The notes under the pieces are model-generated. The model saw only the letters and a program-made list of their open reading frames with translations. It did not search any database and was not told where the DNA came from. A stretch of 64,000 nt of DNA from Thermoanaerobaculia bacterium (GTDB lineage Bacteria > Acidobacteriota > Thermoanaerobaculia > Multivoradales > UBA5704): positions 2,416 through 66,415 of the forward strand of contig DASYTJ010000026.1 in the NCBI GenBank assembly GCA_036002325.1, given 5' to 3'. Shown piece by piece: positions 27,701-41,038 of this stretch. The position numbers were made by a program, and so were the translations under genes. Numbering within the stretch: the stretch's first letter is position 1; each line of letters starts with the position of its first letter.

Positions 27701-28657
27701 CGTCTTGAGCGCCTCGAACGTCTCCGGGTTGCGGAAGAAGCTCGTCACTCTGACCAGGGTGTCCTGGTAGAGGGCCTCCACCTCGCCGGGATTCTTCCGC
27801 AGGAAGCGCGCGTAGTCCGGCAACCCCTGCATCTTGTGCAGGACCATGCGGCGGCTGATGCGGCGGTAGAGGGTGTTCGCTTTGTAGAGGCTGAAATCGA
27901 CGCCCTTGACCTTGCGCAGGATCTCCAGGATCTTGCCGAGGTCGGGCTCGCCCGCGGACGCCTGGCGCCGGTCCGGCGCCACGTACGGATGCCGGGCGAG
28001 GCGCCCGATCTCCTTGGCGATCTCGTCCGGAGGGAGCACGAAGTCCACGCAGCCGCTGGCAACGGCGCTTTGCGGCATGCTGCTCTGTTGGGCCGTGTTG
28101 TCCTGAGCGAAAGTGATCCCGCCCTCGGCCTTGATCGCCTCCAGCCCCAAGGTGCCGTCGGTGGCGGTGCCGGAGAGGATCACGCCGATCGCTCTCTGCC
28201 CCTGCTCCTTCGCCAGGGAGCGGAGGAAGAAATCGATCGGGTGGTGCCGGCCGCGAGCTTCCTCCCGGGGAAGCAGTTGCAGGACTCCCCGCGAGATGAC
28301 CATGTTGCGGTCGGGAGGGATGACGTAGACGCGGTCCGGCTTCACCCGCAGCTCATCCTGGACTTCCGTGACCGGCATCGCGGTCGTCCGGGACAGGATC
28401 TCCGCCAACAGGCTGGGGTGTTTGGGGGCCAGGTGCTGCACCAGGACGAAGGCCATGCCGGTGTCGACCGGCAGCGCGCCGAGCATCTGGATGAAGGCCT
28501 CGAGCCCGCCGGCCGAGGCGCCGACGCCGACGATCGGGAAAGGGGAGCTTGCGGCCTGCGCGCTGGTTTCTTCCACTGGAGGTTCAGCCGCGGCAGGCGG
28601 AGCCGGTTCGGTTTCGGGAGGTGAGGGTGAGGTTGGCCTCCGTCTTCGGGCCGCCAT
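24773..28657 (-). CDS. CheB methylesterase - CheR methyltransferase - PAS - hybrid histidine kinase with a C-terminal receiver
   Basis: ATG 28657. CheB (IVGVGASAGGLEAF...VLVQH), CheR (VWVPGCSTGEEAFSIAILF), NEEL-type coiled coil, HisKA (LAHELRNPL), HATPase (GGLGIGLTVV) and REC (VLVVDDNVDTAE). The track ORF extends to 28786. Confidence 0.9.
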   Translation of the reverse strand: MAARRRRPTSPSPPETEPAPPAAAEPPVEETSAQAASSPFPIVGVGASAGGLEAFIQMLGALPVDTGMAFVLVQHLAPKHPSLLAEILSRTTAMPVTEVQDELRVKPDRVYVIPPDRNMVISRGVLQLLPREEARGRHHPIDFFLRSLAKEQGQRAIGVILSGTATDGTLGLEAIKAEGGITFAQDNTAQQSSMPQSAVASGCVDFVLPPDEIAKEIGRLARHPYVAPDRRQASAGEPDLGKILEILRKVKGVDFSLYKANTLYRRISRRMVLHKMQGLPDYARFLRKNPGEVEALYQDTLVRVTSFFRNPETFEALKTRVLPKLFKNRSGQEPLRVWVPGCSTGEEAFSIAILFAELAAARGSQLPVQVYATDLNEECIDKARKGVYSQNIAHDVSPERLRRFFAEVDGSYRISKPIRDMCVFARHNVLTDPPFSQIDLVSCRNLLIYLEPALQQKLVPRLHFALKPAGFLLLGSSETIGSYRTLFEAEDAKHKIYAKKPGTHRVTLGQAAGLYQGRSGPGHGPGRWQPAGAVSEVQKEADRILMARYAPPGVLVNADLEILQFRGDTGPYLAPAPGKASLNLLRMTREGLLVTLRAAVNRARKDDAPVREEGVRVKSDGGTREVNLEVVPLKGSSAGERGFLVLFEEPAPSPASPPRGSRGRGKAPRSRPRAVSEEEAVERENARLARELAATGEYLQSVIEQQEAANEELQSANEEVQSANEELQSINEELETSKEEIQSSNEELATVNDELQNRNLELNQLSNDLINLLGSVEMAIIMLGPDLRVRRFTPRAGEIFNLVPTDVGRPIGDIKLKLSVPDLEPLLAEVIDTASPREREVQDSQRRWYSLRVRPYRTLENEIDGAVILLVDVDKLKQLEEVLHQRVEELAAADRSKNEFLALLAHELRNPLAPLLNAAQVLETANADGAAVEQARAMMNRQIRNMARLIDDLLDVSRITGGKVGLQRERVELATVLERAVGLTRHLIESRGQELSLSLPGEPVFLDADPVRLEQVFGNLLNNASKFTLRGGHLWVTAEPAVGGPQPPGGVVVRVRDDGIGMAPETLPRVFDLFVQADRSSDRARGGLGIGLTVVQRLVELHGGSVEAHSAGPGQGSELVVRLPVLPPAETAPERHGEAADRIVVSPALSPLVVPPRRVLVVDDNVDTAESLALLLRLKGHQVETAHDGPAALAKAHSFHPEVVLLDIGLPGLDGYQVASRLRRRRRTARALLVALTGYGQEEDQHLAREAGFDHHLTKPVDLLVIHELLARSLSIAEEPEDNAPSRRPDLPVI

Positions 28658-28773
28658 GGGAACGTAGACTACAACGTTTCGGTGCCGAAGGGGAGTGGCT
28701 CGGCACATTTCCTGCATATCCCATTTCGGGTTCCTCTGTCCCCTCTCGGCATGGCAGTTGCAGTGGAGATTTA

Positions 28774-28817
28774 ACGCAGTACTCAAGCTGTAGCGACGCA
28801 GTACTCAAGCTGTAGCG
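28774..28817. repeat. Perfect 22-bp tandem direct repeat (x2) immediately upstream of the XRE regulator gene
   Basis: ACGCAGTACTCAAGCTGTAGCG at 28774-28795 and again at 28796-28817, in the divergent intergenic region. Confidence 0.85.
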
Positions 28818-28838
28818 CCAAGGGAGGGTGTGTGTACG

Positions 28839-29069
28839 ATGGGGACGATTGATCAGGCCGAATATCAGATCATGGTTGATCGCCTGCGGCAGGCTCGCGA
28901 GAAATCCGGGCTGACCCAGGACGAGGTGGCCGAGGAGCTCAGGAAGCCGCAATCGTACGTCAGCAAGGTGGAGAATGGGGATCGCCGGATCGACCCGGTC
29001 GAGCTCTGCTACTTCGCGGCGCTTTACGGCAAGTCGATTACCTGGTTCGTGAACGAGAAGTGCGCCTAG
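28839..29069 (+). CDS. XRE-family helix-turn-helix transcriptional regulator
   Basis: GGGAGGG lies 10 nt upstream of ATG 28839. HTH_3-type sequence LRQAREKSGLTQDEVAEELRKPQSYVSKVENGDRRID. Confidence 0.85.
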   Translation: MGTIDQAEYQIMVDRLRQAREKSGLTQDEVAEELRKPQSYVSKVENGDRRIDPVELCYFAALYGKSITWFVNEKCA

Positions 29070-29209
29070 AGCGAGGGGCCGTAGCTTGAGCTGGCTCGCT
29101 TCGTGCAGTGACGTCCTTCCGGTTTCACCTTAGAGTTCCGGCCCTCTTTCGCGGCAGGCGTTGCGCGCCAGAGCGGTCCGAGGACTACCACCTACTGGAA
29201 GGAACGCTG

Positions 29210-29656
29210 ATGAAACGACACATGGTTCTGGGTCTCTCGGCCCTCCTGCTCTCCCTGATCGCGGTGGCTCCGGCCGCCGGCGACGTGTCCAAGACGACGA
29301 TCTGCCGGATGGACTACACGCTCAAGAGTTGGTCGGCTTTTTACAAAACGTCGCGCGGATCGGGAACGATCACCTGCGACAACGGACAGACGGCGCGAGC
29401 GAAGATCTCCGCCAAGGGCGGCGGCCTGACGGCCGGCAAGTCCGAGGTCCGTGAGGGTCACGGCAAGTTCTCCGAGGTCGCCGACATCAAGGAATTGTTC
29501 GGCAGCTATGCCAGCGCCACCGCCGCCGCGGGCGCCGTCCAGTCTGCCGAAGCACAGGCCCTCACCAAGGGAGAGGTCTCCCTGGCCCTGGCCGGCAACG
29601 GGACGGGCGTGGAGCTCGGCGTGAGCTTCGGCAAGTTCACCATCACCAGGCGGTGA
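29210..29656 (+). CDS. Secreted hypothetical protein (148 aa)
   Basis: ATG 29210. Signal MKRHMVLGLSALLLSLIAVAPAAG. Two Cys residues. No recognisable family. Confidence 0.6.
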   Translation: MKRHMVLGLSALLLSLIAVAPAAGDVSKTTICRMDYTLKSWSAFYKTSRGSGTITCDNGQTARAKISAKGGGLTAGKSEVREGHGKFSEVADIKELFGSYASATAAAGAVQSAEAQALTKGEVSLALAGNGTGVELGVSFGKFTITRR

Positions 29657-29716: not shown

Positions 29717-31408
29717 GTGCGAGGAAAGACCAACGACCGCAGCCGTGAGGTTGCCGCGCTTCTGGCGGCGGCGCGCGCGGTGCTGGAGAACCGCGCCTTC
29801 GCCGACGCGGCGCGCGCGGTCCTGGGGCCGTGCAAGACGATCCTCGGCGCCGATGCCGGCCTCGTCGCCGTGTGCGCGGCGGACGGCAAGGGCTTCGCGG
29901 TCGCCCTCCTCGATCCCGGCAACTTCGAGCTCGGCTCCGCCGCCGGCCTGCCCGCGCCGCTCCGCCGCCTGAGCGCCCTCGCCGCCAAGGGCCGCACCGT
30001 CTTCGCCAACGACCTGTCGAAAAGCACAGCGAAGGAGTCCCCTCCCGGGCGCCGCTCAGTTCCGGAGAGCGCGCTGCTGGCGCCGATCATCATCGCCGGC
30101 GACGCGGCGGGGCTCCTCGGCCTGATCGACAAGCCCGGGGGCTTCTCGGCGGCCGACTGCGAGCTCGCCGAGGTTTTTGCCGAGATGATCGCGGTGGCGA
30201 TGCTCCGGCACGAGGCCGAGCAGCGCGCCCGGCACGTCGCCGACTCGCTGCGCGAGGCGACCGTGGCGCTCACCCGCAGCCTCGACCGCGAGACCGTGCT
30301 GACGACCCTGCTCGATCGCCTGCGGCGGATGGTCCCTTTCGACCGCGCCACCGTCATGCTCGTCGACGAGGCGTCGCGGGTCTCCGTCCGGGCCGTCTTC
30401 GACGGCGACCGCGTCGTTCCTCTGACGCCCGAGGTGCGGCCGGAGTTCGATCCGACCGATCATCCGATCGTCCACGGCATTTTGACGACCGGCACGGCGG
30501 TACTGATTCCCGACGTCCGCGCCCATCCCGAGTGGAGCCTGCCAACGGATGGCTCGTCCGAGGCGAGTTGGATGGGGATCCCGCTGTTCGCGCGCGGCGA
30601 AGTGGCCGGTTTGGTCTCGCTGTCCAAGCGCGAGCCCGGCTACTTCAGCGACGAGCACGTAAGGCTGGCCGAGGCGATGTCGTCCCAGGCTTCGGTGGCC
30701 GTCGAGAACGCGGTTCTCTTCGAGCAGATGCAGGCATCGACGGCAAGGATGCAGTCGCTTTCACGCCGCCTCGTCGAAGTGCAGGAAAGCGAGCGGCGCC
30801 ACATTGCCCGCGAGCTTCACGACGAGGCGGGTCAGGCCCTGGTATCGCTGCGCTACGGACTCCGCTTGCTGGAGAGGGAAATCGACGCGGGCGGAAGCGT
30901 TACCGAACGGGTGGCGGAGCTCGTGCAGCGGACCGATGCCGTCATCGACAGCCTGCACCGTCTGGCCGCAGACCTGCGGCCGGTGAGCCTGGATCACCTG
31001 GGGCTCGATGCGGCTCTCCGCCAATACTCGCGGTCGGCGGGGTCCGAGCTCGGCCTCGAGGTCCGTTTCAAGGCGCGCGGGTTCACCAGCGAGCGTCTCC
31101 CGGCGGCGGTGGAGACGGATCTCTACCGCGTGGTCCAGGAGGCGATGACCAACGTCGCGCGCCACGCCCGCGCCACCCGGGTCGACGTGTTGGTGGAGCG
31201 CCGCGGCGACCGGGTCCTGGTGATGGTCGAGGACGACGGCGTCGGGTTCGAACCGGAGCTGGCCCAGCTCGGAGATCACTTCGGTCTCCTGGGCATAAGG
31301 GAGCGAGCCGAGGCCCTGGGCGGGACCCTGGCGGTGGAAAGCGCGCCCGGGGCAGGGACCACCGTCGTGGTGGAGGTGCCGAGTGTCGATCCGCATCCTG
31401 ATCGCTGA
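29717..31408 (+). CDS. GAF-domain sensor histidine kinase (NarX/DegS-type HisKA_3)
   Basis: GTG 29717. Two GAF-like regions. HisKA_3 H-box ERRHIARELHDEAGQAL. HATPase motifs (NVARHA, DDGVGF, GTTVVVEVP). Confidence 0.9.
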   Translation: MRGKTNDRSREVAALLAAARAVLENRAFADAARAVLGPCKTILGADAGLVAVCAADGKGFAVALLDPGNFELGSAAGLPAPLRRLSALAAKGRTVFANDLSKSTAKESPPGRRSVPESALLAPIIIAGDAAGLLGLIDKPGGFSAADCELAEVFAEMIAVAMLRHEAEQRARHVADSLREATVALTRSLDRETVLTTLLDRLRRMVPFDRATVMLVDEASRVSVRAVFDGDRVVPLTPEVRPEFDPTDHPIVHGILTTGTAVLIPDVRAHPEWSLPTDGSSEASWMGIPLFARGEVAGLVSLSKREPGYFSDEHVRLAEAMSSQASVAVENAVLFEQMQASTARMQSLSRRLVEVQESERRHIARELHDEAGQALVSLRYGLRLLEREIDAGGSVTERVAELVQRTDAVIDSLHRLAADLRPVSLDHLGLDAALRQYSRSAGSELGLEVRFKARGFTSERLPAAVETDLYRVVQEAMTNVARHARATRVDVLVERRGDRVLVMVEDDGVGFEPELAQLGDHFGLLGIRERAEALGGTLAVESAPGAGTTVVVEVPSVDPHPDR

Positions 31409-32021
31409 CGACCACTCGATCGTCCGGTCCGGTCTCCGGGCGCTGCTGCGAGCCGATCCCGATCTCGAGGTCGTCGGCGAGGCGGGAGATGGCGGGGAGA
31501 CGCTGCGCTTCGCCGAGACGCTGCGCCCCGATATGGTTTTGCTCGACATCACCATGCCGCCCGAGAACGGCATCAAGACCGCGCAGCGGCTGAAGGAAAG
31601 GCACCCGGAGCTCATCGTGCTGTTCCTCACCATGCACGAGGACGAGAGCCTGCTGCACGAAGCGCTGCGCGCCGGCGCCGCCGGCTACGTGATCAAGCGT
31701 GCCGAGGAGTCCGAGATCATCCAGGCGATCCATGCGGCGAGCCGCGGCGACATCTACGTGCACCCCGCGATGACCCGCGCGCTCCTTCACCAGCCTGTTA
31801 CAACGGAGCACCGGCGCGGGTCGCCGGTGGATGCGCTCACCCCGCGCGAACTCGACGTCTTGCGCCTCCTCGCCAGAGGCAACACCAACCGGCAGATCGC
31901 CGGCCTGCTCGGCCTGTCGATCCGCACCGTCGAGAACCACCGTGCCAACCTGATGGGCAAGCTCGGGCTGGTCAGCCGGGTCGAGCTGGTGAATTATGCC
32001 GAGGAGCACAACCTGCTCTGA
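31383..32021 (+). CDS. NarL/FixJ (LuxR-type) response regulator
   Basis: GTG 31383 overlaps the kinase 3' end. REC (ILIADDHSIVRSGL...MVLLDITMP) plus a LuxR HTH (LTPRELDVLRLLARGNTNRQIAGLLGLSIRTVENHR). Confidence 0.9.
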   Translation: MSIRILIADDHSIVRSGLRALLRADPDLEVVGEAGDGGETLRFAETLRPDMVLLDITMPPENGIKTAQRLKERHPELIVLFLTMHEDESLLHEALRAGAAGYVIKRAEESEIIQAIHAASRGDIYVHPAMTRALLHQPVTTEHRRGSPVDALTPRELDVLRLLARGNTNRQIAGLLGLSIRTVENHRANLMGKLGLVSRVELVNYAEEHNLL

Positions 32022-32125
32022 ACGCCACACTGGTCCCGAGACCTTGACAACTCCGTAGAAACGACGTCGCCCGCCCGGGTTGCCCCGAGCGGGCCCTATG
32101 TCCTGCACGCCCTCGCAAGGCAGAC

Positions 32126-32680
32126 CTACGCCTTGTGAACGGAGAGAACTTTGGTCACGCCTGTGACGTATTTGATGGCCTTGGCCGCCTCTGCGCGTCG
32201 CGCGGCGGTGAAATCTTGGCCGAACCTGAGCGTCACCACGCCGTTGGCGGCCTCGGTACCGATCTTGAATCCATCCGAGCCCATCTTCTTGACCAACGCA
32301 AGGCGGACCCGCGTCGCGAGGACGGCATCCTTCACTTCGGCCTCGGCTTCACCGGCTGCGACACCGGCCTTGTCGGGATTCTCCACGCCGGCTTCGAGGA
32401 CGATGTCGTTCTGCACGCTGGTCACGCCGGCGACCGACTTGGCGATCGTCCCGGCGAGCTCGCGGGTCTCGCGCTTGTCGACCGTTCCCTTGAGCTGCAG
32501 GGCTCCGGCGTTGGAATCGACGTCCACGTGCAGGCTGTCGGTGCCCAGTTTGTTGAGCAGAGCGAGCTTGACGTTCAATGTAGTGGTCCAATCCGCCTGG
32601 TTGTCCGCGGCGTTTGCCGCGGTTCCACCGATCAGCACCGCGCCGATCAGAACTATCTTTACCAGCATCTTCGTTTGCAT
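32126..32680 (-). CDS. Secreted BON-domain (OsmY-like) protein with two BON repeats
   Basis: Signal MLVKIVLIGAVLIGGTAANA. BON-like repeats (VKLALLNKLGTDSLHVDVDSNAGALQLKGTV...; VRLALVKKMGSDGFKIGTEAANGVVTLRF). Confidence 0.8.
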   Translation of the reverse strand: MQTKMLVKIVLIGAVLIGGTAANAADNQADWTTTLNVKLALLNKLGTDSLHVDVDSNAGALQLKGTVDKRETRELAGTIAKSVAGVTSVQNDIVLEAGVENPDKAGVAAGEAEAEVKDAVLATRVRLALVKKMGSDGFKIGTEAANGVVTLRFGQDFTAARRAEAAKAIKYVTGVTKVLSVHKA

Positions 32681-32737
32681 GAGCTACCGTCCTTTCAGGA
32701 GCGGCCTCTAACTTAGCCTTTCGATCCGCCGCCCGTA

Positions 32738-32785
32738 GAGCACTTACTACCCGGCAGCCGGGCCGGGACGTAGGTAGAAACCACC
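32738..32785 (-). promoter_or_regulatory. Conserved bipartite upstream motif, copy A (faces the BON gene)
   Basis: Minus-strand reading GGTGGTTTCTACCTAC-N16-CGGGTAGTAAGTGCTC. It ends 57 nt before ATG 32680. Confidence 0.6.
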
Positions 32786-32803
32786 CCCCTGGCCCACCGT
32801 GCC

Positions 32804-33007
32804 CTACTTCTTGATCGCCTTGGCAACCCCGCCGACGAACTCGCCGACCTTTCGACGCGCCTTGCCCAGGCTCTCCTCGACGGCGCCGCCGGCGCGCTGC
32901 CGGGAGCCCTCCCGCTCCAGTGCGCTGTTGCCGGTGATGATGCCGGCGGCTTGCTTCACCCGCCCCTTCACCTGCTTCACCTTGGCGCGCGATTCTCGCT
33001 GTCTCAT
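32804..33007 (-). CDS. csbD: CsbD-family stress protein (67 aa)
   Basis: AAGGAGA upstream of ATG 33007. KVKQVKGRVKQAAGIITGNSALEREGSRQRAGGAVEESLGKARRKVGEF is typical of CsbD. Confidence 0.8.
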   Translation of the reverse strand: MRQRESRAKVKQVKGRVKQAAGIITGNSALEREGSRQRAGGAVEESLGKARRKVGEFVGGVAKAIKK

Positions 33008-33098
33008 GGCGTCTCCTTTGCGGATCTCGAAGATCCGTGTCGTGGCCCTTGCGCTTCGTGCGGGACCGTCATCAAACCTAGTCCTCCGACGCCCCACC

Positions 33099-33194
33099 GG
33101 GAAGAGCACTTTCTACCCAGGAGCACCCGCCGCCTAGCGGGTAGAAACTACGGCGCCGGCGTCCCTGCTCCCACGTAGTAAGTGCTCTTCCCGG
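33099..33194. promoter_or_regulatory. Two back-to-back copies (B1 facing csbD, B2 facing the Trp-rich protein gene) of the bipartite motif, sharing one GGGTAGAAAC block
   Basis: B1 (minus reading) is GTAGTTTCTACCCGC-N17-TGGGTAGAAAGTGCTCTTCCC. B2 (plus reading) is GGGTAGAAACTACGG-N17-CACGTAGTAAGTGCTCTTCCCGG. Confidence 0.6.
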
Positions 33195-33244
33195 CGGCGG
33201 CTCGAAGGGCTAGGTTGGGGATGTTCTTGAAAGGACGGTACCTC

Positions 33245-34600
33245 ATGAGACGAACTGCAATGTTGGCCCTGCTGGCGGCGGTCGTCGCCGGCGCGGCTTA
33301 TGGCCAGGCTGATCCCTACGGCGGTCCGCCCGGCAGCCGGGATCCGAACGACGACTACTGGCGCCAACCGGCCGATGCCTACGATCGTCAGCCGGACTAT
33401 GACTATGTCCGCGACGAGGCTCCGGCCGTCGATGTCGGCTTTTTCTACGACGAGCTGTCTCCCTACGGCGAGTGGGTGAGGCACCCCCAGTACGGCTGGG
33501 CGTGGTTCCCCCGCCACATCCACGCGGGATGGCGTCCGTACTCTCTCGGCCGCTGGGTGGAGAGCGACTACGGCTGGACGTGGGTTTCCGATGAACCGTT
33601 CGGCTGGGCGACCTACCACTACGGTCGCTGGGCCTGGGACCGCCAGATCGGCTGGTTGTGGGTGCCCGGCACCGACTGGGGACCGGCGTGGGTGGCATGG
33701 CAGCAGGGCAACGGCTACGTCGGCTGGGCGCCGCTGCCGCCGACGGTCGGCTTCGAGATCGGAGTCGGCATCCGGCTCGGCGGCTTCAACCTCAGGCTCG
33801 GGATCGCACCGCGCGATTACGCCTTCGTCGAGGAGCGTCGATTCCTCGATTCCCGCATCAATGACTACGTCGTGCCGGCGGCACGCAACGTCACGATCAT
33901 CAACAACACCACGAACATCACCAACTACACCGTCGTCAACGACCGGGTGATCAACCACGGCGTGCCGATCGAGCGCATCGAGCGGGCGGCCGGCAGGAGA
34001 GCAACGCGTTTCCGCGTCGCCACCGCGCCCACCCCGCGCGGCGCGGGCGTGCAACGCGACGTGATCACCATCTACCGGCCGCGGGAAAGCAAGCTGGAGA
34101 CAGTCAGGGTCGCACGGCGCAACAACGCCGGCCTGCCGCAGGCGGCGCCACGGCCGAACCGGTCCGAAGGGCAGTCTCCGACCGCCTGGATCGCTCCGGT
34201 CCCCCCTATTCCGGTCGCTCCGCGCACCAAGCCCGCGCCACGGGACAACAACGAGCGCCAGTACCAGCGCGAGCAGAAGGACCTGAAGGCGAGCCAGGAC
34301 AGGGAACGGCGAGACCTGGAACGGACCCACCGGCAGGAGACGGCTCAGGCGCAGGCCAGGCCCAACGCCAACGAGGTAGCGCAGCGCCACCGCGCCGAGC
34401 TGCAGGCGCAGCAGGAGCAGCGCAACAGCGCCGAGAAGCAGTTGCAGACCCGCCAGCGGATCGAGCGCAAAGCCGCGCAGGCGAGCGCGGCCGAGCTCCG
34501 GCGGGCGAAGCCGGCGGCAGAGCCGGGCAGACCCAAGAAGGAGAACGACAAGGAGAAGGAGAAGAAGGACGACGACCAGCAGCACCCGCGACCGTTCTGA
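33245..34600 (+). CDS. Secreted Trp/Tyr/Gly-rich repeat protein with a highly charged Gln/Arg/Glu C-terminal tail
   Basis: ATG 33245. Signal MRRTAMLALLAAVVAGAAYG. Aromatic repeats (YGEWVRHPQYGWAWFP, GWTWVSDEPFGWATYHYGRWAWD, GWLWVPGTDWGPAWVAW). The track ORF starts at 33182. Confidence 0.75.
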   Translation: MRRTAMLALLAAVVAGAAYGQADPYGGPPGSRDPNDDYWRQPADAYDRQPDYDYVRDEAPAVDVGFFYDELSPYGEWVRHPQYGWAWFPRHIHAGWRPYSLGRWVESDYGWTWVSDEPFGWATYHYGRWAWDRQIGWLWVPGTDWGPAWVAWQQGNGYVGWAPLPPTVGFEIGVGIRLGGFNLRLGIAPRDYAFVEERRFLDSRINDYVVPAARNVTIINNTTNITNYTVVNDRVINHGVPIERIERAAGRRATRFRVATAPTPRGAGVQRDVITIYRPRESKLETVRVARRNNAGLPQAAPRPNRSEGQSPTAWIAPVPPIPVAPRTKPAPRDNNERQYQREQKDLKASQDRERRDLERTHRQETAQAQARPNANEVAQRHRAELQAQQEQRNSAEKQLQTRQRIERKAAQASAAELRRAKPAAEPGRPKKENDKEKEKKDDDQQHPRPF

Positions 34601-34803
34601 TTCGGTTCAGCGGCGGGCCGGGCGTGGCGAGGCGTCGCCGCGCTCGGGGCGTACCCAGGAGGCTGCAGGGAAACGGCGGGAGTACACGCAATGCGGCTCG
34701 TCGGAGCGATGTGCTTTCTGGCGGTGGCGAGTTTGGGAGCGCGGGCGGATGCCGAGGAGATGGCACCGGGAACCCCGATTGTGTCGGTGCGTATCGAGCG
34801 ACC

Positions 34804-34858
34804 GGGTAGTTCCTACCTAGCTCCGGTTCCCCTCTCGGGTAGAAAGTGCGCTTCCCGG
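34804..34858 (+). promoter_or_regulatory. Conserved bipartite upstream motif, copy C (faces the 29-aa membrane peptide gene)
   Basis: GGGTAGTTCCTACCTAG-N16-CGGGTAGAAAGTGCGCTTCCCGG. It ends 56 nt before ATG 34915. Confidence 0.6.
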
Positions 34859-34914
34859 ATGAGGTGCCGCAGGACTAATCTCGAGATGGTAGGTCCTGAA
34901 AGGAGAGGAGAATT

Positions 34915-35004
34915 ATGAGCACCACCACGTTGATCATCGTGGTCGTCGTATTGGTCCTTCTCTTTGGTGGCGGTGGCGGCTACTACTGGCGCAGACGGCG
35001 CTGA
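34915..35004 (+). CDS. 29-aa single-pass membrane peptide (not in the ORF track)
   Basis: AAGGAGAGGAG upstream of ATG 34915. MSTTTLIIVVVVLVLLFGGGGGYYWRRRR, then TGA 35002-35004. Preceded by motif copy C. Confidence 0.55.
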   Translation: MSTTTLIIVVVVLVLLFGGGGGYYWRRRR

Positions 35005-35283
35005 ACAGCTTCCTTCCTGGTCAACAGGCGCCGATGAGGACTCAGAATCGTGCTCTTGGCGATTTTGCGTCCGACGGGTCCAGTGACCATGGTGGGCGCC
35101 GGTGGTAATACGATCGGGGGATGCGCCGCAGGCGTGGCGGCGGCGGCCATTCCGGCGCTCGATGTGATCGGAATGACGCTTCTCATCGGCCTGATCGCCG
35201 GGGCCGGACTGTTTGTCATGAGGTTCTCCGCCTAGATTCTTGGCGGAGCTTGATCATCGCCTGCCAGGTAGGTGCGCGGTGGG

Positions 35284-36297
35284 TCACGACTCAGCCAGCT
35301 GCACCAGCTGCTTTCCTTGGTTTTTCCCCTGCAGCATTGCGATGAAGGCCTGCGGCGCGGCTTCGATGCCTTGGGCGACGTCCTCCCGGTACTTCAGCTT
35401 CCCCTGCTTCAGCCACCTGGCCAGTTGCTCGCGGCCCTCGGGGAACCGCTCGGCATAGCTAGAGACCAGGAAGCCCTGCACCTTCGCCTGCTTGACGATC
35501 AACTGACCCAGCCAGCGCGGCCCCACCTCGGGCTCCTCCAGGTTGGACTGCGAAATCTGTCCGCAGACGGAGATCCGCGCCCCGGCGTTGATCCATCGCA
35601 CGATTGCATCGGTGATCGCCCCGCCTACGTTGTCGAAATAGACGTCGATGCCGTCGGGGCAGAGCTCCGCGAGCTTGGTGTGGAAATCCACGGCGGTCTT
35701 GTAATTGAATGCCGCGTCGAAACCGAGCTCGTCGAGCAACCACGAGATCTTGGCGTCGGCGCCTGCCACTCCCACGACGCGGCACCCCTTGATCTTCGCG
35801 ATCTGGCCGACGAGCATCCCGACCGCTCCTGTAGCCCCGGACACCACGACGGTCTCCCCAGGTTGCGGGTCGCAGATATCGAGCAGGCCGAAATACGCCG
35901 TGAGACCCGGCATGCCCAGCACTCCGAGAGCCGTCGAGATCGGTGCGAGGCTGGGGTCGATTCTCCTCAGCTCGCGCCCCTGGGCGACGGCGTACTCCTG
36001 CCATCCCAACATCCCCTCGACCGTATCGCCGGCTCGCAGCTCCGGATCTGCGGACTCCACCACGAAGGCGACCGCTCCGCCGATCATGACTTCCCCGATG
36101 GCAACCGGCCGGGCAGAGGAGCCGGCATCACTCATCCGCCCTCGCATGTAGGGATCGAGCGACAAGTAGACCGATCGAACCAGCACTTCGCCTGCGGCAG
36201 GTGAAGGCAACGGAGAGTAGACCAGATGGAAGTCCGACACCTTGGGAAAACCCACCGGCCGCGAAGCGAGGGTGATCCGCCTGTTCACTGTTGCCAT
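35284..36297 (-). CDS. NADP-dependent oxidoreductase of the MDR superfamily (PTGR1/YncB/CurA-like alkenal/enone reductase)
   Basis: 337 aa. N-terminus FHLVYSPLPSPAAGEVLVRSVYLSLDPYMRG. Nucleotide-binding motif GETVVVSGATGAVGMLVGQIAKIKGCRVVG. Confidence 0.85.
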   Translation of the reverse strand: MATVNRRITLASRPVGFPKVSDFHLVYSPLPSPAAGEVLVRSVYLSLDPYMRGRMSDAGSSARPVAIGEVMIGGAVAFVVESADPELRAGDTVEGMLGWQEYAVAQGRELRRIDPSLAPISTALGVLGMPGLTAYFGLLDICDPQPGETVVVSGATGAVGMLVGQIAKIKGCRVVGVAGADAKISWLLDELGFDAAFNYKTAVDFHTKLAELCPDGIDVYFDNVGGAITDAIVRWINAGARISVCGQISQSNLEEPEVGPRWLGQLIVKQAKVQGFLVSSYAERFPEGREQLARWLKQGKLKYREDVAQGIEAAPQAFIAMLQGKNQGKQLVQLAES

Positions 36298-36424
36298 GCG
36301 ATTCGACCGGCCTGCGTCTGCGGGCGGCTACTCCTTCTTCTTCACAACGAGCAGAACCCCGCCGACCACGATCGCACCGACGCCGGCCCACACCGGGATG
36401 TTGACCGTTTCCTTGTCCTGCGGC

Positions 36425-38806
36425 TCATGGCGTCTTGACGCTCGGCGGGGCTGCTGGGGGCTGTGTGGGGCCGGCTGGACGAATCACTATCTCGCCGTTC
36501 GGTGATTCCATGAGCGGCGCGTCGGGGCCCGGCACCGGCCGCTCAGCGCGTCTCGCCTCCGCCTGCATCGCCAGATACTGGTCGATTCCGTGCTCGATCT
36601 CGCGGGGAAAGTGCGGCGCCCGCCCGACGAGTTGGTCCTGGTAGACGCGGAGCATGATCTCGCGGAAGATCGGCAGCGCCGTGCGCCCGCCGGTCTCCCT
36701 CTTCCCCAGCGGGCGATTGTCGTCGAAGCCGATCCGGACCGCCACGGTGATCCCCGTTGTCCCGTAGGTGGACCCCACGAACAGCGCATCGCGGAAGTCG
36801 CTCGTCGTCCCGGTCTTGCCCATCACCGGGATCGGAAAATCGCGGTCGTCGAGGCTGTGGGCGGTGCCGTGACGCAGTCGAACGACGCCCCGGAGCCCCT
36901 CCTGGATGGAGCGCAAGGCCGCGGAGCGGATCGCTCGCGCGCCCCGCGGCGCCTCGTACAGCCCGTCGCCGGAGACGCCGGTCACGCGGTCGATAATGTG
37001 CGGTTCCGCCAGGACGCCCGAGGCGATGGCGCGATAGGCGTCCGCCAATTCCAGCAGCAGGACCTCCGACGCCCCGAGTGCCGTGGACAGGTAGGGTTGC
37101 AGCGGGGTGCGGATCCCCATCTCGTTGGCGGTCTGGATCACGGTGTTGACGCCGATCTCACGCGTGATCCACACGGCCACGGCGTTGCGCGACTCGGCCA
37201 GGGCCTGGCGCAGCGGAATCGAGCCCTTGAACCGGTGGTCGTAATTGGCGATCCACTTGATGCCGCCGTCGCCGACCGGCACGCCGATCGGTTCGTCGGG
37301 GACCTGGGTGTCGAGGCCCATACCCGACTCGAACGCGGCGAGGTACACCAGCGGCTTCATCGCGGAGCCCGGCTGGCGTAGCGAGCCCGTGACGCGGTTG
37401 TAGTCGGAGTAGCGCGTATCGCGATCTCGGTAGACCCGCCGCCCGCCGGCCTCGGCCAGGATCGCCGCGTCCGCATTGCCGAGCACCACCACCGAGCCCT
37501 GGATCAATCCCTTCCCCTTCGGGTGCCGCTTCTCGTACAGGGCTAAACCGTGCTCGAGGGCTTCGTTGACGATCGTCTGCACGCGTGCGTCGACCGTCGA
37601 GTGGACCGAGATCCGCCCCTGGAGCAGGTCTTCGACGCGGTAGCGACTCCCGCCATGCTGGGTCAGCTCTTCGAGGACGTGCTCGATCGCGGCGGGAGCG
37701 TCGGTCTTGATCGGGCTGTGAAGGGCGACGCGGATCGGTTCGCCCTGGCAGCGCTTCGCGAGACTCTCCGGGATGTACCCGTTGCGCGCCATCAGGGCGA
37801 GAATCTGGTTGCGGCGGCCCAGCAGCCGCTGGTTGCCGGGCTCGGGTGAGTAGGCCTGCGGCGACTTGCCGATCGCAGCCAGAAGCGCAGCGTTGCCCGC
37901 ATCGTCCGGCGTATAACTCGACAAGGGTTTGCCAAAGTAGTACTCGGATGCGGCGGCAAAGCCGTAGCGGCCGTTACCCAGGTAGAGGAAGCTGGCGTAG
38001 CGCGCGAAGATCTCGCGCTTGGCCTGGTCCTCCGATCCATACCGCCTGCGCATCTCTTGCTCGAGCCAGAGCGTCAGGCGCACCTCCTCCATTTTTCGCA
38101 GGAGCTTGTTCGTGGCGGAGGCTCCCAGGACCACGGAGAGGAGCCGGGGTGGGGCCAGGCCGGTGTGGAAGAGCGCGTCTCCGTCGGCGCGGCTCGTCAG
38201 GTCCTGCAGAAAGTAGCCGCGAACGAGTTGCTGCGTCAGCGTCGAGCCCCCCTGCGGCAGGAGCAGCCGCAACCCGTGACCGCCCTTCCGCCATACAGCC
38301 AGCGAGCGGACCGCCGCCTTCTGGGCCACCCGTGGCAGGGCACGGTAGTCCACACCGGAATGGGTGAAGAAGCTCTTGTCCTCGGCCGCCAGGATCGCCT
38401 GGCGCAGGATGAGCGGCACCTCGTCGTAGGTCACGACCCGCCGGTACTCGCGCGCCAGCTCGATCAGCACCTTGCCGTGAACGTCGCGGACGGCGCCGGT
38501 GGTGGGGAGCTCGAACCGGATGAACGGCTCGAGGTCGGGCACGCCGGCGCGTTCGAAGTAGACGTGGTGGAGCAGCCCCGCCGCCGGGGACAGGAGCAGC
38601 GCGACGAAAAGGAGCGGCGCCACGGGAAGGAGCGCCACGCCGAGGAGCACGGCACGGCGCCGCGTGGCTTTCAGCCGTGCGGCCAAGCGCCGGGCGACGC
38701 GCAAATGCGCCAAGAGGGCCCGCTGCCGCTCGCGAATTGTGTCGAGTGGCCTCGCCGGGTCCATTTCCACCAGAGAGCCTGCTGCTATAACGATTCTTCG
38801 GTTCAT
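36425..38806 (-). CDS. Class A (PBP1A-family) bifunctional penicillin-binding protein
   Basis: ATG 38806 (MNRRIVIAAGS). GT51 motifs EDKSFFTHSGVD and GGSTLTQQLV. Transpeptidase motifs SAMKP (SxxK), SRN and KTGTT. The track ORF start 38872 lies inside the upstream motif. Confidence 0.9.
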   Translation of the reverse strand: MNRRIVIAAGSLVEMDPARPLDTIRERQRALLAHLRVARRLAARLKATRRRAVLLGVALLPVAPLLFVALLLSPAAGLLHHVYFERAGVPDLEPFIRFELPTTGAVRDVHGKVLIELAREYRRVVTYDEVPLILRQAILAAEDKSFFTHSGVDYRALPRVAQKAAVRSLAVWRKGGHGLRLLLPQGGSTLTQQLVRGYFLQDLTSRADGDALFHTGLAPPRLLSVVLGASATNKLLRKMEEVRLTLWLEQEMRRRYGSEDQAKREIFARYASFLYLGNGRYGFAAASEYYFGKPLSSYTPDDAGNAALLAAIGKSPQAYSPEPGNQRLLGRRNQILALMARNGYIPESLAKRCQGEPIRVALHSPIKTDAPAAIEHVLEELTQHGGSRYRVEDLLQGRISVHSTVDARVQTIVNEALEHGLALYEKRHPKGKGLIQGSVVVLGNADAAILAEAGGRRVYRDRDTRYSDYNRVTGSLRQPGSAMKPLVYLAAFESGMGLDTQVPDEPIGVPVGDGGIKWIANYDHRFKGSIPLRQALAESRNAVAVWITREIGVNTVIQTANEMGIRTPLQPYLSTALGASEVLLLELADAYRAIASGVLAEPHIIDRVTGVSGDGLYEAPRGARAIRSAALRSIQEGLRGVVRLRHGTAHSLDDRDFPIPVMGKTGTTSDFRDALFVGSTYGTTGITVAVRIGFDDNRPLGKRETGGRTALPIFREIMLRVYQDQLVGRAPHFPREIEHGIDQYLAMQAEARRAERPVPGPDAPLMESPNGEIVIRPAGPTQPPAAPPSVKTP

Positions 38807-38861
38807 GGAGGTACCGTTCTTTCTCGAACGTGCCTCCAATCTAGTCTTCGGATTCCCAACA

Positions 38862-38914
38862 GGGAAGCGCATTTACTACCCGGGAGCAGGAGCACGACGT
38901 GGGTAGAAACCACC
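38862..38914 (-). promoter_or_regulatory. Conserved bipartite upstream motif, copy D (faces the PBP1A gene)
   Basis: Minus-strand reading GGTGGTTTCTACCCAC-N16-CGGGTAGTAAATGCGCTTCCC. It ends 55 nt before ATG 38806. Confidence 0.6.
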
Positions 38915-38986
38915 CTGCCGGCGCGGCTAGGAGCTCCCAGGGCGAACGCTCCCGCTCCTTGCCGAGCGGCGCCCGAGGAGTCTGGC

Positions 38987-39022
38987 AAAAAAGCGCCCTC
39001 ACCTGAGGTTGGAAGCCGGCGC
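38987..39022 (-). terminator. Possible intrinsic terminator of the upstream minus-strand membrane-protein gene
   Basis: Minus-strand reading GCGCCGGCTTCCAACCTCAGGTGAGGGCGC followed by TTTTTT. A T6 run is rare in this sequence. The stem is imperfect. Confidence 0.35.
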
Positions 39023-39235
39023 CGCCCCCCCCCGAGTTGGGGAACAGCCCCCCCGAGTTGGGGGAGGGCCATACCTACTCGGGGGAGGCATCCCCCAATT
39101 CGAGGCGGTCTCCCCCGCTTTGGTACCGAGGCCAGCATGGTCCCCCGGCCGGAGGCCAGGGCTCCCCCGCGCGACGGAAAACCCGCCGGCGCAGACGACG
39201 CTGCGCGCTTCAACAACGGCCGGACCGGAATCCGC

Positions 39236-41038
39236 TCAGAAACCTTCGCCGGTAAAGTCGAGGAAGACTCCGAGATCCCGCGGATCGCCACTCTTGGGAT
39301 CGCGGCGAGCGGGCACGAAGCCGCCGGTGGTCTCCAGCGTGAAACGGTAGAAGAAGTCGCGGGGGAAGAACCCCAGGTTCCGCGCCACGGGCTCAACGGC
39401 CAGATCAGCCGGAGTGCCATTGCGTTTCCCTTCGCTGTCGAAACGGACGCGCAGGCGGTCCACGCCGCTGTCGAGGACCAGCTCGTTGTCCGCCGAAAGG
39501 GAGTAGACGAGGAGCTCCAGCCGCGGCAGCGGAGCCGGCGAGACGACGATCACCTCGGAGCGCGTCGAGCCGCGCACCCAGACGCCGTGCGGGTGACGCT
39601 CTTCGGCGAAGAAGCTGCGGCGCGGCACGATCCAGACGGCGTTGCCCCAGGTCTGGGTGTAGTAGCCGGGGAGCCGGTTGCCCGGGAGCAGGGTCAGCTC
39701 GAGCGGCAGCCGCTGGAAGGCGGGAGCGTCGGCGTAGACCGCCTCGGGGGCGAGACGCGGCAGGGAGCCGGCGACGGCCAGCACCGTCCAGAGTGCGGCG
39801 GCGGCGAAGGGGAGCACGAGGCTGCGGCGGACGGCGATGCGGCCGGGCAGGAAGAGGAACGCCGGGTAGATCGCCGCCAAGTAGCGGCTGCCGAGAAAAC
39901 CGGCGGCGCCGGCGAAGTCGTGCGGGTGGGCGAGCAGAACCGCCAGGACGTACACCCCCAAAGCTCCGAGCAGAAGGTGCCGGGAACGATCTTTGGGACT
40001 CGCGACGTAAAGACCGAGAGCGAAGAGCGCGAACGGGAAATAAGGGAGGAGCCCGGTGAAGCGGCCGGCGAAGATGTAGCCGAGATTCCGGGGCAGCAGC
40101 TTCAGGCCGGCGGCGAGATCCGAGGACGTGCCGGCGGCGGTCTCCGCCCCGTATCCCTGCCAGAGATCGCGCGGACTTTCGAGAGGGAACTCGGCCTCGA
40201 AGGTGCGGCGCTGCGCTCCTCCGTAGGCGCTCCACTCATGCGTGCCCACCCGCTGCAGCAGCGCGAGGCCGCCAATTGCCAGAAGGGCGCCGGTGACGAT
40301 GGCCAGCGCGCCGCGCCACCGGCGGCGCGCTGCGAGGTCGACGAGGATCGGCAGGCCGAGCAAAGCGAGGAGCGGACTCGACATCGACGCGGCGCCAAGA
40401 AGGACGCCCGCGCCGGCGAACGCCGCCAGATGACTCCGCCGCCACTCCGGGCGCTTGCGCAGGGCCTGCCACGCCAGGAGCGGGAAGAAGCCGCAGGCCA
40501 TGAGGAAGACTTCGGGTTCCAGCCGGAACGCGCACGCGAAGGCGGCCGACGCGAAGAAGAAGCCGCAGACGAAGAGGGTGGCGAGTCCGGTCTCGCGGCG
40601 CCAGAACCATAGTGCCGCGCCGGTCATGGCGAGGAACAGAGCCATGTTGAAGACGGCGATCCCGCGCAGACCCATAAGGGCATAGAACGGCAGCGCCGCC
40701 AGCGGATAGGCCAGGGGCCGGCCGTAACGCAGGGTCTTGCCGCCGTCGTCGGTGAACAGGGTCAGACCGGCGGGACCGCCATCCCAGATGCGATTGGCCC
40801 GTTCGAGGTCGGCCTCGCGGTAGGCGAGGTCGTGATCGTGCCAGAGGCTCTGGATCATCATCACCGAGGTGGCCTCGTCGCCGGCGGGGAGCGGCGAGCG
40901 GACGCCGGCGAGGGATGCCGCGAGGCCGAGCAGCAGGAGCGCCGGGCAGAGGACGGAGAGGGCTCGCGGGCGCATTGGGGGGAGGGAAGGGTTGCGGAGT
41001 CGGCGTAACGATACACTCGTTGTTCGTGTCTTGCCCAT
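39236..41038 (-). CDS. Polytopic membrane protein with a C-terminal soluble domain, GT-C (ArnT/PMT-like) glycosyltransferase candidate
   Basis: About 12 predicted TM helices. The first extracytoplasmic loop has Asp-rich SLWHDHDLAYREADLE. Lies in a glycosyltransferase cluster. An alternative start is ATG 40975. Confidence 0.6.
   Translation of the reverse strand: MGKTRTTSVSLRRLRNPSLPPMRPRALSVLCPALLLLGLAASLAGVRSPLPAGDEATSVMMIQSLWHDHDLAYREADLERANRIWDGGPAGLTLFTDDGGKTLRYGRPLAYPLAALPFYALMGLRGIAVFNMALFLAMTGAALWFWRRETGLATLFVCGFFFASAAFACAFRLEPEVFLMACGFFPLLAWQALRKRPEWRRSHLAAFAGAGVLLGAASMSSPLLALLGLPILVDLAARRRWRGALAIVTGALLAIGGLALLQRVGTHEWSAYGGAQRRTFEAEFPLESPRDLWQGYGAETAAGTSSDLAAGLKLLPRNLGYIFAGRFTGLLPYFPFALFALGLYVASPKDRSRHLLLGALGVYVLAVLLAHPHDFAGAAGFLGSRYLAAIYPAFLFLPGRIAVRRSLVLPFAAAALWTVLAVAGSLPRLAPEAVYADAPAFQRLPLELTLLPGNRLPGYYTQTWGNAVWIVPRRSFFAEERHPHGVWVRGSTRSEVIVVSPAPLPRLELLVYSLSADNELVLDSGVDRLRVRFDSEGKRNGTPADLAVEPVARNLGFFPRDFFYRFTLETTGGFVPARRDPKSGDPRDLGVFLDFTGEGF

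Follow-up and report, generated by a model that had tools for sequence, protein, structure and literature searches.

The classic general-stress responses of bacteria are run by sigma factors: the RpoS regulon contains osmY and members of the yjbJ/CsbD and ymgE/yeaQ families, csbD is a classic member of the sigma-B regulon in Bacillus, promoters of the sigma-B/SigF type in Bacillus and Mycobacterium read GTTT-N12-17-GGGTAT, and the alphaproteobacterial EcfG-PhyR system is likewise sigma-run. Another arrangement is that of DevR (or DosR), the response regulator of the DevS/DosT-DevR system of Mycobacterium tuberculosis: the Dev box is 18 bp long, with G5 and C7 of each half-site essential for DevR binding; each DevR promoter carries at least two boxes, and those of the tgs1-Rv3131 promoter, with centres at -42.5 and -63.5, lie in the same helical phase; in some secondary boxes one half is conserved and the other has degenerated, and divergent promoters can share boxes (PMC3177182). 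The activated DosR dimer is reported to touch sigma-A region 4 and the C-terminal domain of the RNA polymerase alpha subunit (PMC13486717). Here we analyse a 64,000-nt stretch of a Thermoanaerobaculia genome (contig DASYTJ010000026.1 of assembly GCA_036002325.1; G+C 68.7%; hereafter the window), which matches a JGI metagenome contig and in which a first-pass annotation had noticed five copies of a bipartite motif upstream of stress-type genes and had read them as the candidate signature of a regulon. We conclude with high confidence that each copy is an operator-plus-promoter module that works at the level of DNA; the full model, in which a response regulator encoded beside the motif cluster binds a two-box operator and activates a weak sigma-A-type promoter, is one that we hold with moderate confidence. 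The kind of arrangement is conventional, and this instance of it is previously undescribed: the Thermoanaerobaculia, an almost uncultured class, are not known to have more than a single cultured genus, we know of no regulon described for them, and full-text literature searches found nothing on Thermoanaerobaculia promoters or on a BON/CsbD regulon in Acidobacteria.

The five copies are present on the strands and at the positions first reported, and from left to right we call them units A, B1, B2, C and D (A, B1 and D on the minus strand, B2 and C on the plus strand). A search of the window for GGGTAGWAARTGC that allowed up to two mismatches gave six matches where 1.45 are expected (0 of 100 shuffles reached six), and all six fall within the five units. 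A profile hidden Markov model (HMM) built exclusively from copies outside the window recovered exactly the same five (E = 1e-20 to 3e-9) and otherwise gave, over the 64 kb, only two weak matches, which echo B1 and D on the opposite strand. All five lie within 6.2 kb, and there are none in the other 58 kb. The distances from the end of the motif, as originally drawn, to the start codon also hold (57, 91, 50, 56 and 55 nt for A, B1, B2, C and D), whereas the spacer had been miscounted: CTACC of the left block and GGGTAG of the right block are separated not by 17 or 18 nt but by 20, 21, 20, 19 and 20 nt, in the same order. The motif itself stood and its right-hand end did not, as conservation runs for about 30 nt further, through TTCCCG, 16-18 bp and one of TAGGTT, TAAGTT, TAATCT and TAGATT, and in units A, B2 and D it reaches the start codon (GAAAGGACGGTAYCTC ATG). 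Finally, the left block of B2 had been rightly placed and wrongly called degenerate: it is the palindromic left block, or distal box, that B1 has at 33139-33152, seen from the opposite strand, and the two units use this one box in common.

Related genomes carry the same module. The exact pattern CTACC-N19-21-GGGTAGWAARTGCKC, scanned against one genome per species with 8-kb blocks returned, was found in at least 118 blocks, of which at least 114 come from at least 59 assemblies of metagenome-assembled genomes (MAGs) labelled mostly Thermoanaerobaculia, Thermoanaerobaculaceae, Holophagae/Holophagales or simply Acidobacteriota; the remaining four are chance matches in other phyla. In the blocks listed the pattern gave 148 copies, counting four of the window's own; to the 144 others we added 71 of 74 nhmmer matches outside the exact pattern, those kept after re-anchoring, which makes a set of 215 non-window copies. 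Two of these are chance matches (Deinococcus, Virgibacillus), which leaves at least 55 Acidobacteriota assemblies with secure copies. Two of the assemblies bear other labels, and their contigs carry several motif copies: L041 (DATIVB010000199.1, labelled Chondromyces sp.), where the gene under the motif is BON-like in appearance, and L117 (DATHSO010000029.1, Candidatus Methylomirabilota); both are probably mis-binned Acidobacteriota contigs. Since blocks from the same genome are frequently neighbours (JACQZW010000024.1, 16-56 kb; OY969426.1, 728-752 kb; CAVRZJ010000006.1, 240-280 kb), the copies sit in islands of tens of kilobases. Counting the first G of GGGTAG as position 0, as we do throughout, the start codon peaks at +73 to +75, where it lies in about half of all copies, and in 180 of the 215 an open reading frame (ORF) preceded by a Shine-Dalgarno-like sequence starts within 330 nt. 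The module precedes orthologues of the BON, CsbD, small-peptide, DUF6600 and PBP1A genes in dozens of genomes, and this strong bias to gene starts bears out the regulon signature.

The same figures speak to the possibility that the motif is a dispersed repeat or mobile element (REP- or MITE-like, or a "mobile promoter" cassette) that lacks regulatory specificity. Such an element would account for the many near-identical copies of about 95-110 bp, leader included, that stand before unrelated genes, and for their clustering in islands. It would not account for copies that point to a start codon at a fixed distance and mostly face the beginning of an ORF, for their absence from the rest of the window, for the same gene families carrying the motif across the 59 assemblies listed, or for information that is unevenly spread, most of it lying in separate boxes and hexamers. 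Terminal repeats and target duplications were not noticed, in an analysis that included no search aimed at these. A repeat of this kind is, in our judgement, extremely improbable.

The anatomy of the module is best read from the whole set of copies. The full unit, of about 95 bp, consists of a distal box G-Y-R-S-TTW-CTACC, about 20 bp, a proximal box GGTAG-WAA-GTGCKC, and then TTCnCG, 17 bp and TAGnTT. In the distal box CTACC alone was fixed by the search, and the positions before it, numbered back from its last C, are conserved in their own right: G-11 (0.98), T-10 (0.83), A or G at -9, G-8 (0.78), and T-7 and T-6 (0.96 each). The consensus, G-T-A-G-T-T-T-C-T-A-C-C, is frequently a perfect 5-3-5 palindrome, as in unit C (GGTAGTTCCTACC). 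Read on the reverse strand, the proximal box is the same 12-mer, G-C-A-C-T-T-W-C-T-A-C-C, with GCAC for GTAG at its outer end; it is a half-palindrome. The spacer measures 20 bp in 180 of the 215 copies and 19-21 bp in 212, and the boxes lie 34 bp apart from centre to centre, or about 3.2 helical turns. Moreover, the two boxes are interchangeable: 14 divergent promoter pairs are fully symmetric (AAG-MGCAC-TTW-CTACC, N20, GGTAG-WAA-GTGCK-CTT), and in them each box adjoins its own TTCnCG-17-TAnnnT, so that every box is the proximal site of its own promoter and the distal site of the opposite one, while in three further divergent cases, as in B1/B2 of the window, two promoters have one palindromic distal box in common. 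Of the two options offered in the first-pass annotation, that of a dimeric regulator fits.

The second option took the left block as the -35 element and GGGTAG as the -10 element of an alternative sigma factor, sigma-B/sigma-F-like or other, with transcription starting some 7-10 nt past GGGTAG, within GTGCKCTTCCC. Its appeal is clear: GTTT and GGGTA resemble the elements of group-3 stress sigma factors such as sigma-B of B. subtilis and mycobacterial SigF, csbD and BON genes are classic general-stress content, and the right block is unusually invariant for the site of a transcription factor. Yet GTTT and GGGTA are 25 nt apart, against 12-17 nt in this class, with the spacing of the blocks held as tightly as described above; the role swap in the 14 divergent pairs is incompatible with a -35/-10 pair, because a sigma factor reads -35 and -10 with different domains; the distal box is palindromic, and common to B1 and B2; TT at +15, TAnnnT at +38 and conservation up to about +50 in all gene families, which form a separate -35/-10 pair downstream, would be inexplicable in a transcribed leader; and sigma genes do not recur among the genes of the islands. 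We regard this option as quite unlikely. A sigma-54 reading of the right block (GG...GC in GGGTAG..GTGC) was also tried and rejected: GG and GC are 8-9 nt apart instead of 10, no NtrC-type activator gene lies close by, and the distal box repeats the sequence in inverse orientation.

The proximal box stops one base short of a hexamer in the -35 position, and from there on the conservation has the geometry of a sigma-70-family housekeeping promoter. Outside the search pattern, conserved positions are found at T+15 (0.99), T+16 (0.96), C+17 (0.77), C+19 (0.72) and G+20 (0.79), and again at T+38 (0.77), A+39 (0.81) and T+43 (0.86). TT occupies +15/+16 in 187 of 212 copies (about 88%), and TAnnnT starts at +37 to +39 in 188 of 212, where the flanking background has it at 0.18% per position; the hexamers that occur most often are TTCCCG and TTCACG on one side and TAGATT and TAGGTT on the other, with 17 bp between. 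In the 101 copies with a long or no identified leader, information stays high through the -10 hexamer; from +44 to +49 it still amounts to 0.27 bit per position, and from +50 on it equals the background (0.13 bit), so that the conserved module ends where a transcription start would be expected. A start about 7 nt past the -10 hexamer, near +50, would centre the proximal box at about -43 and the distal box at about -77, and would leave a leader of about 24 nt with the ribosome-binding site. A "third box" suspected at the -10 region (GGACTAG) was dropped, as it does not align to the box consensus.

Who reads these hexamers is a separate question. They agree with the E. coli consensus at 3-4 of 6 positions, and a scan of 32000-39500 for E. 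coli-consensus promoters returned no site; textbook promoters (TTGACA-17-TATATT, TTGACA-17-TAAATT) do occur elsewhere in the same MAGs, so that the promoters of the regulon resemble the normal type in a deliberately weakened form. We read the missing scan matches as weakness of the promoter rather than its absence. Alternatively, the boxes may be operators and TTCnCG-17-TAGnTT may be read by a dedicated alternative sigma factor, for instance the extracytoplasmic function (ECF) sigma factor that lies under the motif in some genomes. Besides the modest match to TTGACA/TATAAT, this would suit the conserved G at the third -10 position with its C/G-rich flanks, the near confinement of the hexamer pair to box-bearing sites (101 of the 149 TTnnCn-17-TAnnnT pairs in 0.89 Mb of fetched DNA fall within motif copies) and the membership of an ECF sigma gene in the regulon in three genomes. 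On the other side, TT...C and TA...T are the most conserved positions of housekeeping promoters and 17 bp is their canonical spacing, the elements typical of ECF promoters (AAC in the -35, CGT in the -10) are absent, the ECF gene is found in few islands, and weak core elements are what an activator-dependent promoter is expected to have. A dedicated sigma factor thus seems unlikely to us, and we retain the weak housekeeping-type promoter.

The inverted repeat also raises the possibility of an RNA element, in which either the repeat or the leader (GAGNCACGUUC...GGACGGUNUCUC AUG) would fold to control termination or translation, for instance as a thermometer-like hairpin over the ribosome-binding site. 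Indeed, the arms can pair over 8 bp, and in leaders of the BON, DUF6600 and PBP1A type an 11-bp hairpin over the ribosome-binding site can be drawn in which six pairs are changed on both sides. However, the arms vary without compensation, as had been claimed for the five window copies and as now holds for 215: of their two most variable positions, one is paired in 81 of the 215, with T/T the most frequent combination, and the other in 52 of 215, with G/G. Rfam 15 gave no match at the gathering threshold in the whole window and nothing relevant at E <= 5 in 32000-39500, RNAalifold found no consensus structure in 54 leaders or in 39 leaders of the GGACGG type, and single-sequence folding of the five units was ordinary (z-scores from -1.4 to +2.1). 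The drawn leader hairpin was dropped as a main feature and would at most be a side feature: 78.3% of its cells are paired against 76.8% in shuffles, its covariation score was reached by 18 of 500 shuffles, its inner stem is invariant and for that reason uninformative, and its outer stem would span the predicted start. For the boxes the RNA reading is largely refuted, for module and leader together it is very improbable, and the earlier argument for a DNA-level site rather than an RNA stem gains support from the non-complementary arms and the lack of a consensus fold. The same results speak against a cruciform stem.

What binds the boxes is suggested by the genes next to them. Directly beside unit A, on the plus strand, the window encodes a soluble GAF-GAF-HisKA_3-HATPase histidine kinase (29717-31408; Pfam), a candidate sensor, and a response regulator of the NarL/LuxR family with a REC domain and a GerE helix-turn-helix (HTH) (31383-32021; Pfam), the candidate box binder, whose best sequence matches in the PDB are NarL (6e-38) and VraR and DevR (2e-35). 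In the ranking of gene families within motif blocks the kinase stands third and the regulator fourth, behind BON proteins and the oxidoreductase. Among the matches listed, 20 of the 59 assemblies have an orthologue of the kinase, and 17 of 59 one of the regulator (77-94% identical), in the same 8-kb block as the motif, typically directly adjacent to it, and in a few genomes the kinase-regulator operon is divergent from a motif-bearing promoter. The inverse test agrees: starting from orthologues of the regulator, three of three distinct long contigs from other samples have one to three copies within 10 kb, among the same neighbouring genes. The best 120 database clusters of the regulator are 85-94% identical with a nearly invariant HTH, which fits the nearly invariant boxes; homologues of 55-75% identity, which were sought for co-varying boxes, are not found among these 120 clusters, all of which are at least 85% identical. 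In addition, the inner half TACCYA of both boxes, which is strongly conserved, agrees with the NarL heptamer TACYYMT at six of its seven positions (PMC4886647). Association and resemblance together indicate that the regulator is probably the box-binding factor.

The same two-box architecture could nevertheless be bound by a different regulator, encoded elsewhere or identical with the XRE-type HTH protein at 28839-29069, in which case the two-component system would be just one more resident of the island or a neighbour of the regulon. The case for the NarL-type protein is one of linkage and of resemblance to a heptamer, the kinase-regulator operon of the window has no motif upstream, the 34-bp spacing is unlike that of characterised NarL-family sites, and the XRE gene lies two genes upstream of the kinase. 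Against this, the 114 blocks listed show no further recurrent family of DNA-binding proteins; the XRE gene is not among the recurrent families, an ECF sigma gene appears in 3-4 blocks only and there downstream of the motif, and the response regulator is exceptionally conserved, its near-invariant HTH matching the near-invariant boxes. We consider a different regulator doubtful, while giving it real weight.

The kinase varies between genomes in its sensor region, which is GAF-GAF in the window (563 aa in all) and GAF-PAS-GAF in several MAGs (717-733 aa, including L122/L123, 7846-10026), and in L120 (9103-10026) the called kinase gene has just 307 aa and no GAF domains. In a PDB search the ATPase domain alone matches DevS/DosT, and the GAF region weakly matches the GAF domains of PDE2A. 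Upstream of the kinase (24773-29656) lie a large CheB-CheR-PAS-HisKA-HATPase-REC fusion gene on the minus strand, the XRE-type HTH gene and a 144-aa ORF (29222-29656) with no Pfam match; the CheB-CheR fusion protein is kept at high identity only in the closest relative (L101).

In the model that we hold with moderate confidence, dimers of an HTH regulator would occupy both boxes, and the regulator would be an activator rather than a repressor: the dimer on the proximal box would recruit RNA polymerase to a promoter too weak by itself, in the manner of class II activation, in which the activator site adjoins or overlaps the -35 element and has its centre near -41.5 to -43, and the distal dimer would assist the proximal one. 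The most probable binder is the NarL/LuxR-family regulator encoded at 31383-32021, which the soluble GAF kinase would phosphorylate upon a cytoplasmic signal, and the output would be the clustered envelope and stress regulon. Several observations weigh against this model: (i) the regulator appears tied to the boxes by association only, and neither in the window nor at the regulator-anchored loci does a motif copy precede the kinase-regulator operon, which therefore has no autoregulatory signature. (ii) The PDB sequence search gave no match between the GAF domains of the kinase and the haem-binding GAF domains of DosS/DosT. (iii) The positions -43 and -77 depend on the predicted start, and the hexamers, as poor consensus matches, could be the elements of another sigma factor. 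(iv) The 34 bp between box centres do not make up a whole number of helical turns, and exceed both the 21 bp of DevR and the 7-2-7 arrangement of NarL. (v) GTGCKC, the promoter-side half of the proximal box, is almost invariant and yet is not the palindromic partner of GGTAG, which a simple symmetric dimer does not explain. (vi) Within the 20-bp spacer, too, a weak consensus can be read (TCGCGG..TGCTCCC).

The genes downstream of the 215 copies give the regulon an overwhelmingly envelope, osmotic or desiccation-related content, and this content has much in common with the classic general-stress regulons of RpoS, sigma-B and EcfG. BON lipoproteins are the commonest downstream family (54 copies), followed by hydrophobic peptides of 26-30 aa (27 copies), DUF6600 proteins and an unannotated 282-aa secreted protein (8 copies each), ice-binding-like proteins (6), and a 72-aa membrane protein that is often followed by an NADPH-type oxidoreductase of the ADH_N_2 family (4). 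Three copies each precede cytochrome c, a giant GT2 + GH94 protein resembling cyclic-glucan synthases, an ECF sigma factor and a class A penicillin-binding protein (PBP; three clustered); two each precede a phospholipid methyltransferase, an outer-membrane beta-barrel protein and a putative aldehyde dehydrogenase, identified by eye. The class A PBP, whose inclusion had been thought unexpected, is in fact a conserved member, with homologues in seven motif-bearing blocks and the motif directly upstream in L025, L062 and L079.

Two further observations concern the composition of these gene sets. In the peptide family, MSTTTLIIVIVVLVLLFGGGGYYWRGRR-like, a hydrophobic helix leads into a Gly run, after which come YYWR and a basic tail; Pfam has no family for these peptides, and all 27 copies lie directly under a motif copy (for example in L008, L097 and L119). 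In L122 (10686-15061) a single motif copy precedes an apparent eight-gene operon, in the order DUF6600, BON, 49-aa, 72-aa and 40-aa proteins, ADH_N_2 oxidoreductase, 66-aa protein and Transgly_assoc (YmgE/YeaQ-family). In the window the same families have modules of their own, and the comparison suggests that promoters are gained and lost as the island rearranges.

In the window, the identities first given to the annotated downstream genes are borne out by Pfam. Unit A, on the minus strand, has its distal box GTGGTTTCTACC at 32773-32784, in agreement with the consensus G-Y-R-S-TTW-CTACC, its proximal box GGGTAGTAAGTGCTC at 32738-32752, found by direct reading, by the mismatch search and by the HMM, and a core promoter (32710-32737), recognised by conservation in 212 copies, that consists of TACGGG (32732-32737), 16 bp and TAAGTT (32710-32715). 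The -35-like hexamer is the poorest among the five units; the predicted start is near 32703, and the gene below, at 32126-32680 on the same strand, encodes a BON-domain, OsmY-like protein (Pfam BON, E = 7e-16). The common palindromic distal box of B1 and B2 (33139-33152) reads GGGTAGAAACTACG on the plus strand and GTAGTTTCTACC on the minus strand, and the same three-box layout is found in L011, L070 and L101. To its left, on the minus strand, B1 (33075-33118) comprises the proximal box GGGTAGAAAGTGCTC (33104-33118), TTCCCG (33098-33103), 17 bp and TAGGTT (33075-33080), with a predicted start near 33068 and hence a leader of about 61 nt for csbD (32804-33007, minus; Pfam CsbD, E = 2e-11). To its right, on the plus strand, B2 (33173-33216; HMM E = 2.6e-9) comprises the proximal box ACGTAGTAAGTGCTC (33173-33187), TTCCCG (33188-33193), 17 bp and TAGGTT (33211-33216), with a predicted start near 33223, and serves the gene of a Trp-rich secreted DUF6600 protein (33245-34600, plus; Pfam DUF6600, E = 8e-36).

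Unit C, on the plus strand, has the perfectly palindromic distal box already mentioned at 34805-34817 and, at 34837-34881, the proximal box GGGTAGAAAGTGCGC (34837-34851), TTCCCG (34852-34857), 18 bp and TAATCT (34876-34881); its predicted start lies near 34888, and the ORF under it (34915-35004, plus) encodes a hydrophobic peptide of 29 aa with no Pfam match. Unit D, on the minus strand, repeats the distal box of unit A, GTGGTTTCTACC, at 38902-38913 and continues at 38838-38881 (HMM E = 1e-20) with the proximal box GGGTAGTAAATGCGC (38867-38881), TTCCCT (38861-38866), 17 bp and TAGATT (38838-38843), with a predicted start near 38831. It faces the class A PBP gene (36425-38806, minus; Pfam Transgly and Transpeptidase, for the transglycosylase and transpeptidase domains), and an ADH_N_2 oxidoreductase gene 127 nt downstream on the same strand (35284-36297) may be co-transcribed with it. 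Public gene calls begin later, by about 14 codons for PBP1A (near 38764) and about 5 codons for the DUF6600 gene (near 33260). The longer ORFs are probably correct, because their ATGs at 38806 and 33245 stand at the conserved +72 to +75 behind the GAAAGGACGGTAYCTC leader, as in the orthologues.

Just upstream of unit D, the intergenic segment 39026-39125 holds a cluster of C5-8/G5-8 repeats, with a 21-nt tandem pair CCCCCCCGAGTTGGGGRA and several inverted copies, from which long imperfect hairpins are possible; Rfam gave only a noise-level match over this segment. Between the upstream 600-aa ORF and unit D, a T-run GGGCGCTTTTTTGCC follows a GC-rich imperfect stem (38984-39000, minus) and looks like a terminator separating transcription units; the terminator scan did not report this site, whose loop is too long for the scan.

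Taken together, the motif defines a conserved regulon of envelope, osmotic or dormancy type across at least 59 assemblies, nominates one kinase and regulator pair as its controller and corrects start-codon calls, those of PBP1A (38806) and DUF6600 (33245) among them. If the assignment of the regulator is true, stress or dormancy would be under DevR-like control in a phylum for which no such mechanism is known. As a tentative generalisation, which goes further than the model for the single module, we put forward that the general or envelope stress response of the Thermoanaerobaculia may be run by a soluble GAF(-PAS)-GAF kinase, a NarL-type regulator and an operator of two boxes that is unusually rich in information (a 12-mer used in either orientation, with centres 34 bp apart), fused to a standard weak promoter and a short leader as a cassette of about 95-110 bp before unrelated envelope genes, which would be gathered with the regulator in islands of 20-60 kb; this would set it apart from the sigma-run RpoS, sigma-B and EcfG responses.

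The closest described systems compare as follows: (i) The present system strongly resembles the RpoS and EcfG regulons in content, with BON/OsmY, CsbD and Transgly_assoc proteins, small membrane proteins and glucan synthesis, and differs from them in that control here apparently lies with an operator-binding regulator at a housekeeping-type promoter, with no dedicated sigma factor, and in that the target genes are clustered with the regulator in islands. (ii) With sigma-B/SigF promoters it has the letters GTTT and GGGTA in common, and is unlike them in its 25-nt spacing, its inverted and interchangeable blocks and its separate -35/-10 elements downstream. (iii) NarL of E. coli is the best sequence match of the regulator among solved structures, and the NarL/NarP heptamer is the one fitted by the inner half of both boxes; however, the halves of each box are everted here (GGTAG-N3-CTACC), the NarL-like heptamers lie face to face with about 14-16 bp between them rather than the 2 bp of the 7-2-7 arrangement, and the locus has no link to nitrate respiration genes. 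(iv) The nearest parallel in design is with DevR/DosR of M. tuberculosis: in both, a NarL-family regulator is paired with a soluble GAF-GAF-HisKA_3 kinase, promoters have at least two boxes, some boxes are half-divergent, divergent promoters share boxes, the regulon is of a stress or dormancy type, and the Dev box at -42.5 is close to the -43 or so predicted for the proximal box. In contrast, the box is GGTAG-N3-CTACC and not the 18-bp Dev box, its copies lie 34 bp apart with a 20-bp spacer whereas adjacent Dev boxes lie 21 bp apart, the GAF domains of the kinase do not match those of DosS/DosT in sequence, the regulator matches NarL and VraR at least as closely as it does DevR, and the genes concern the envelope and osmotic stress instead of hypoxic metabolism. 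Judged by these similarities and divergences at the level of sequence, the system is an analogue of DosS/DosT-DosR and not its orthologue.

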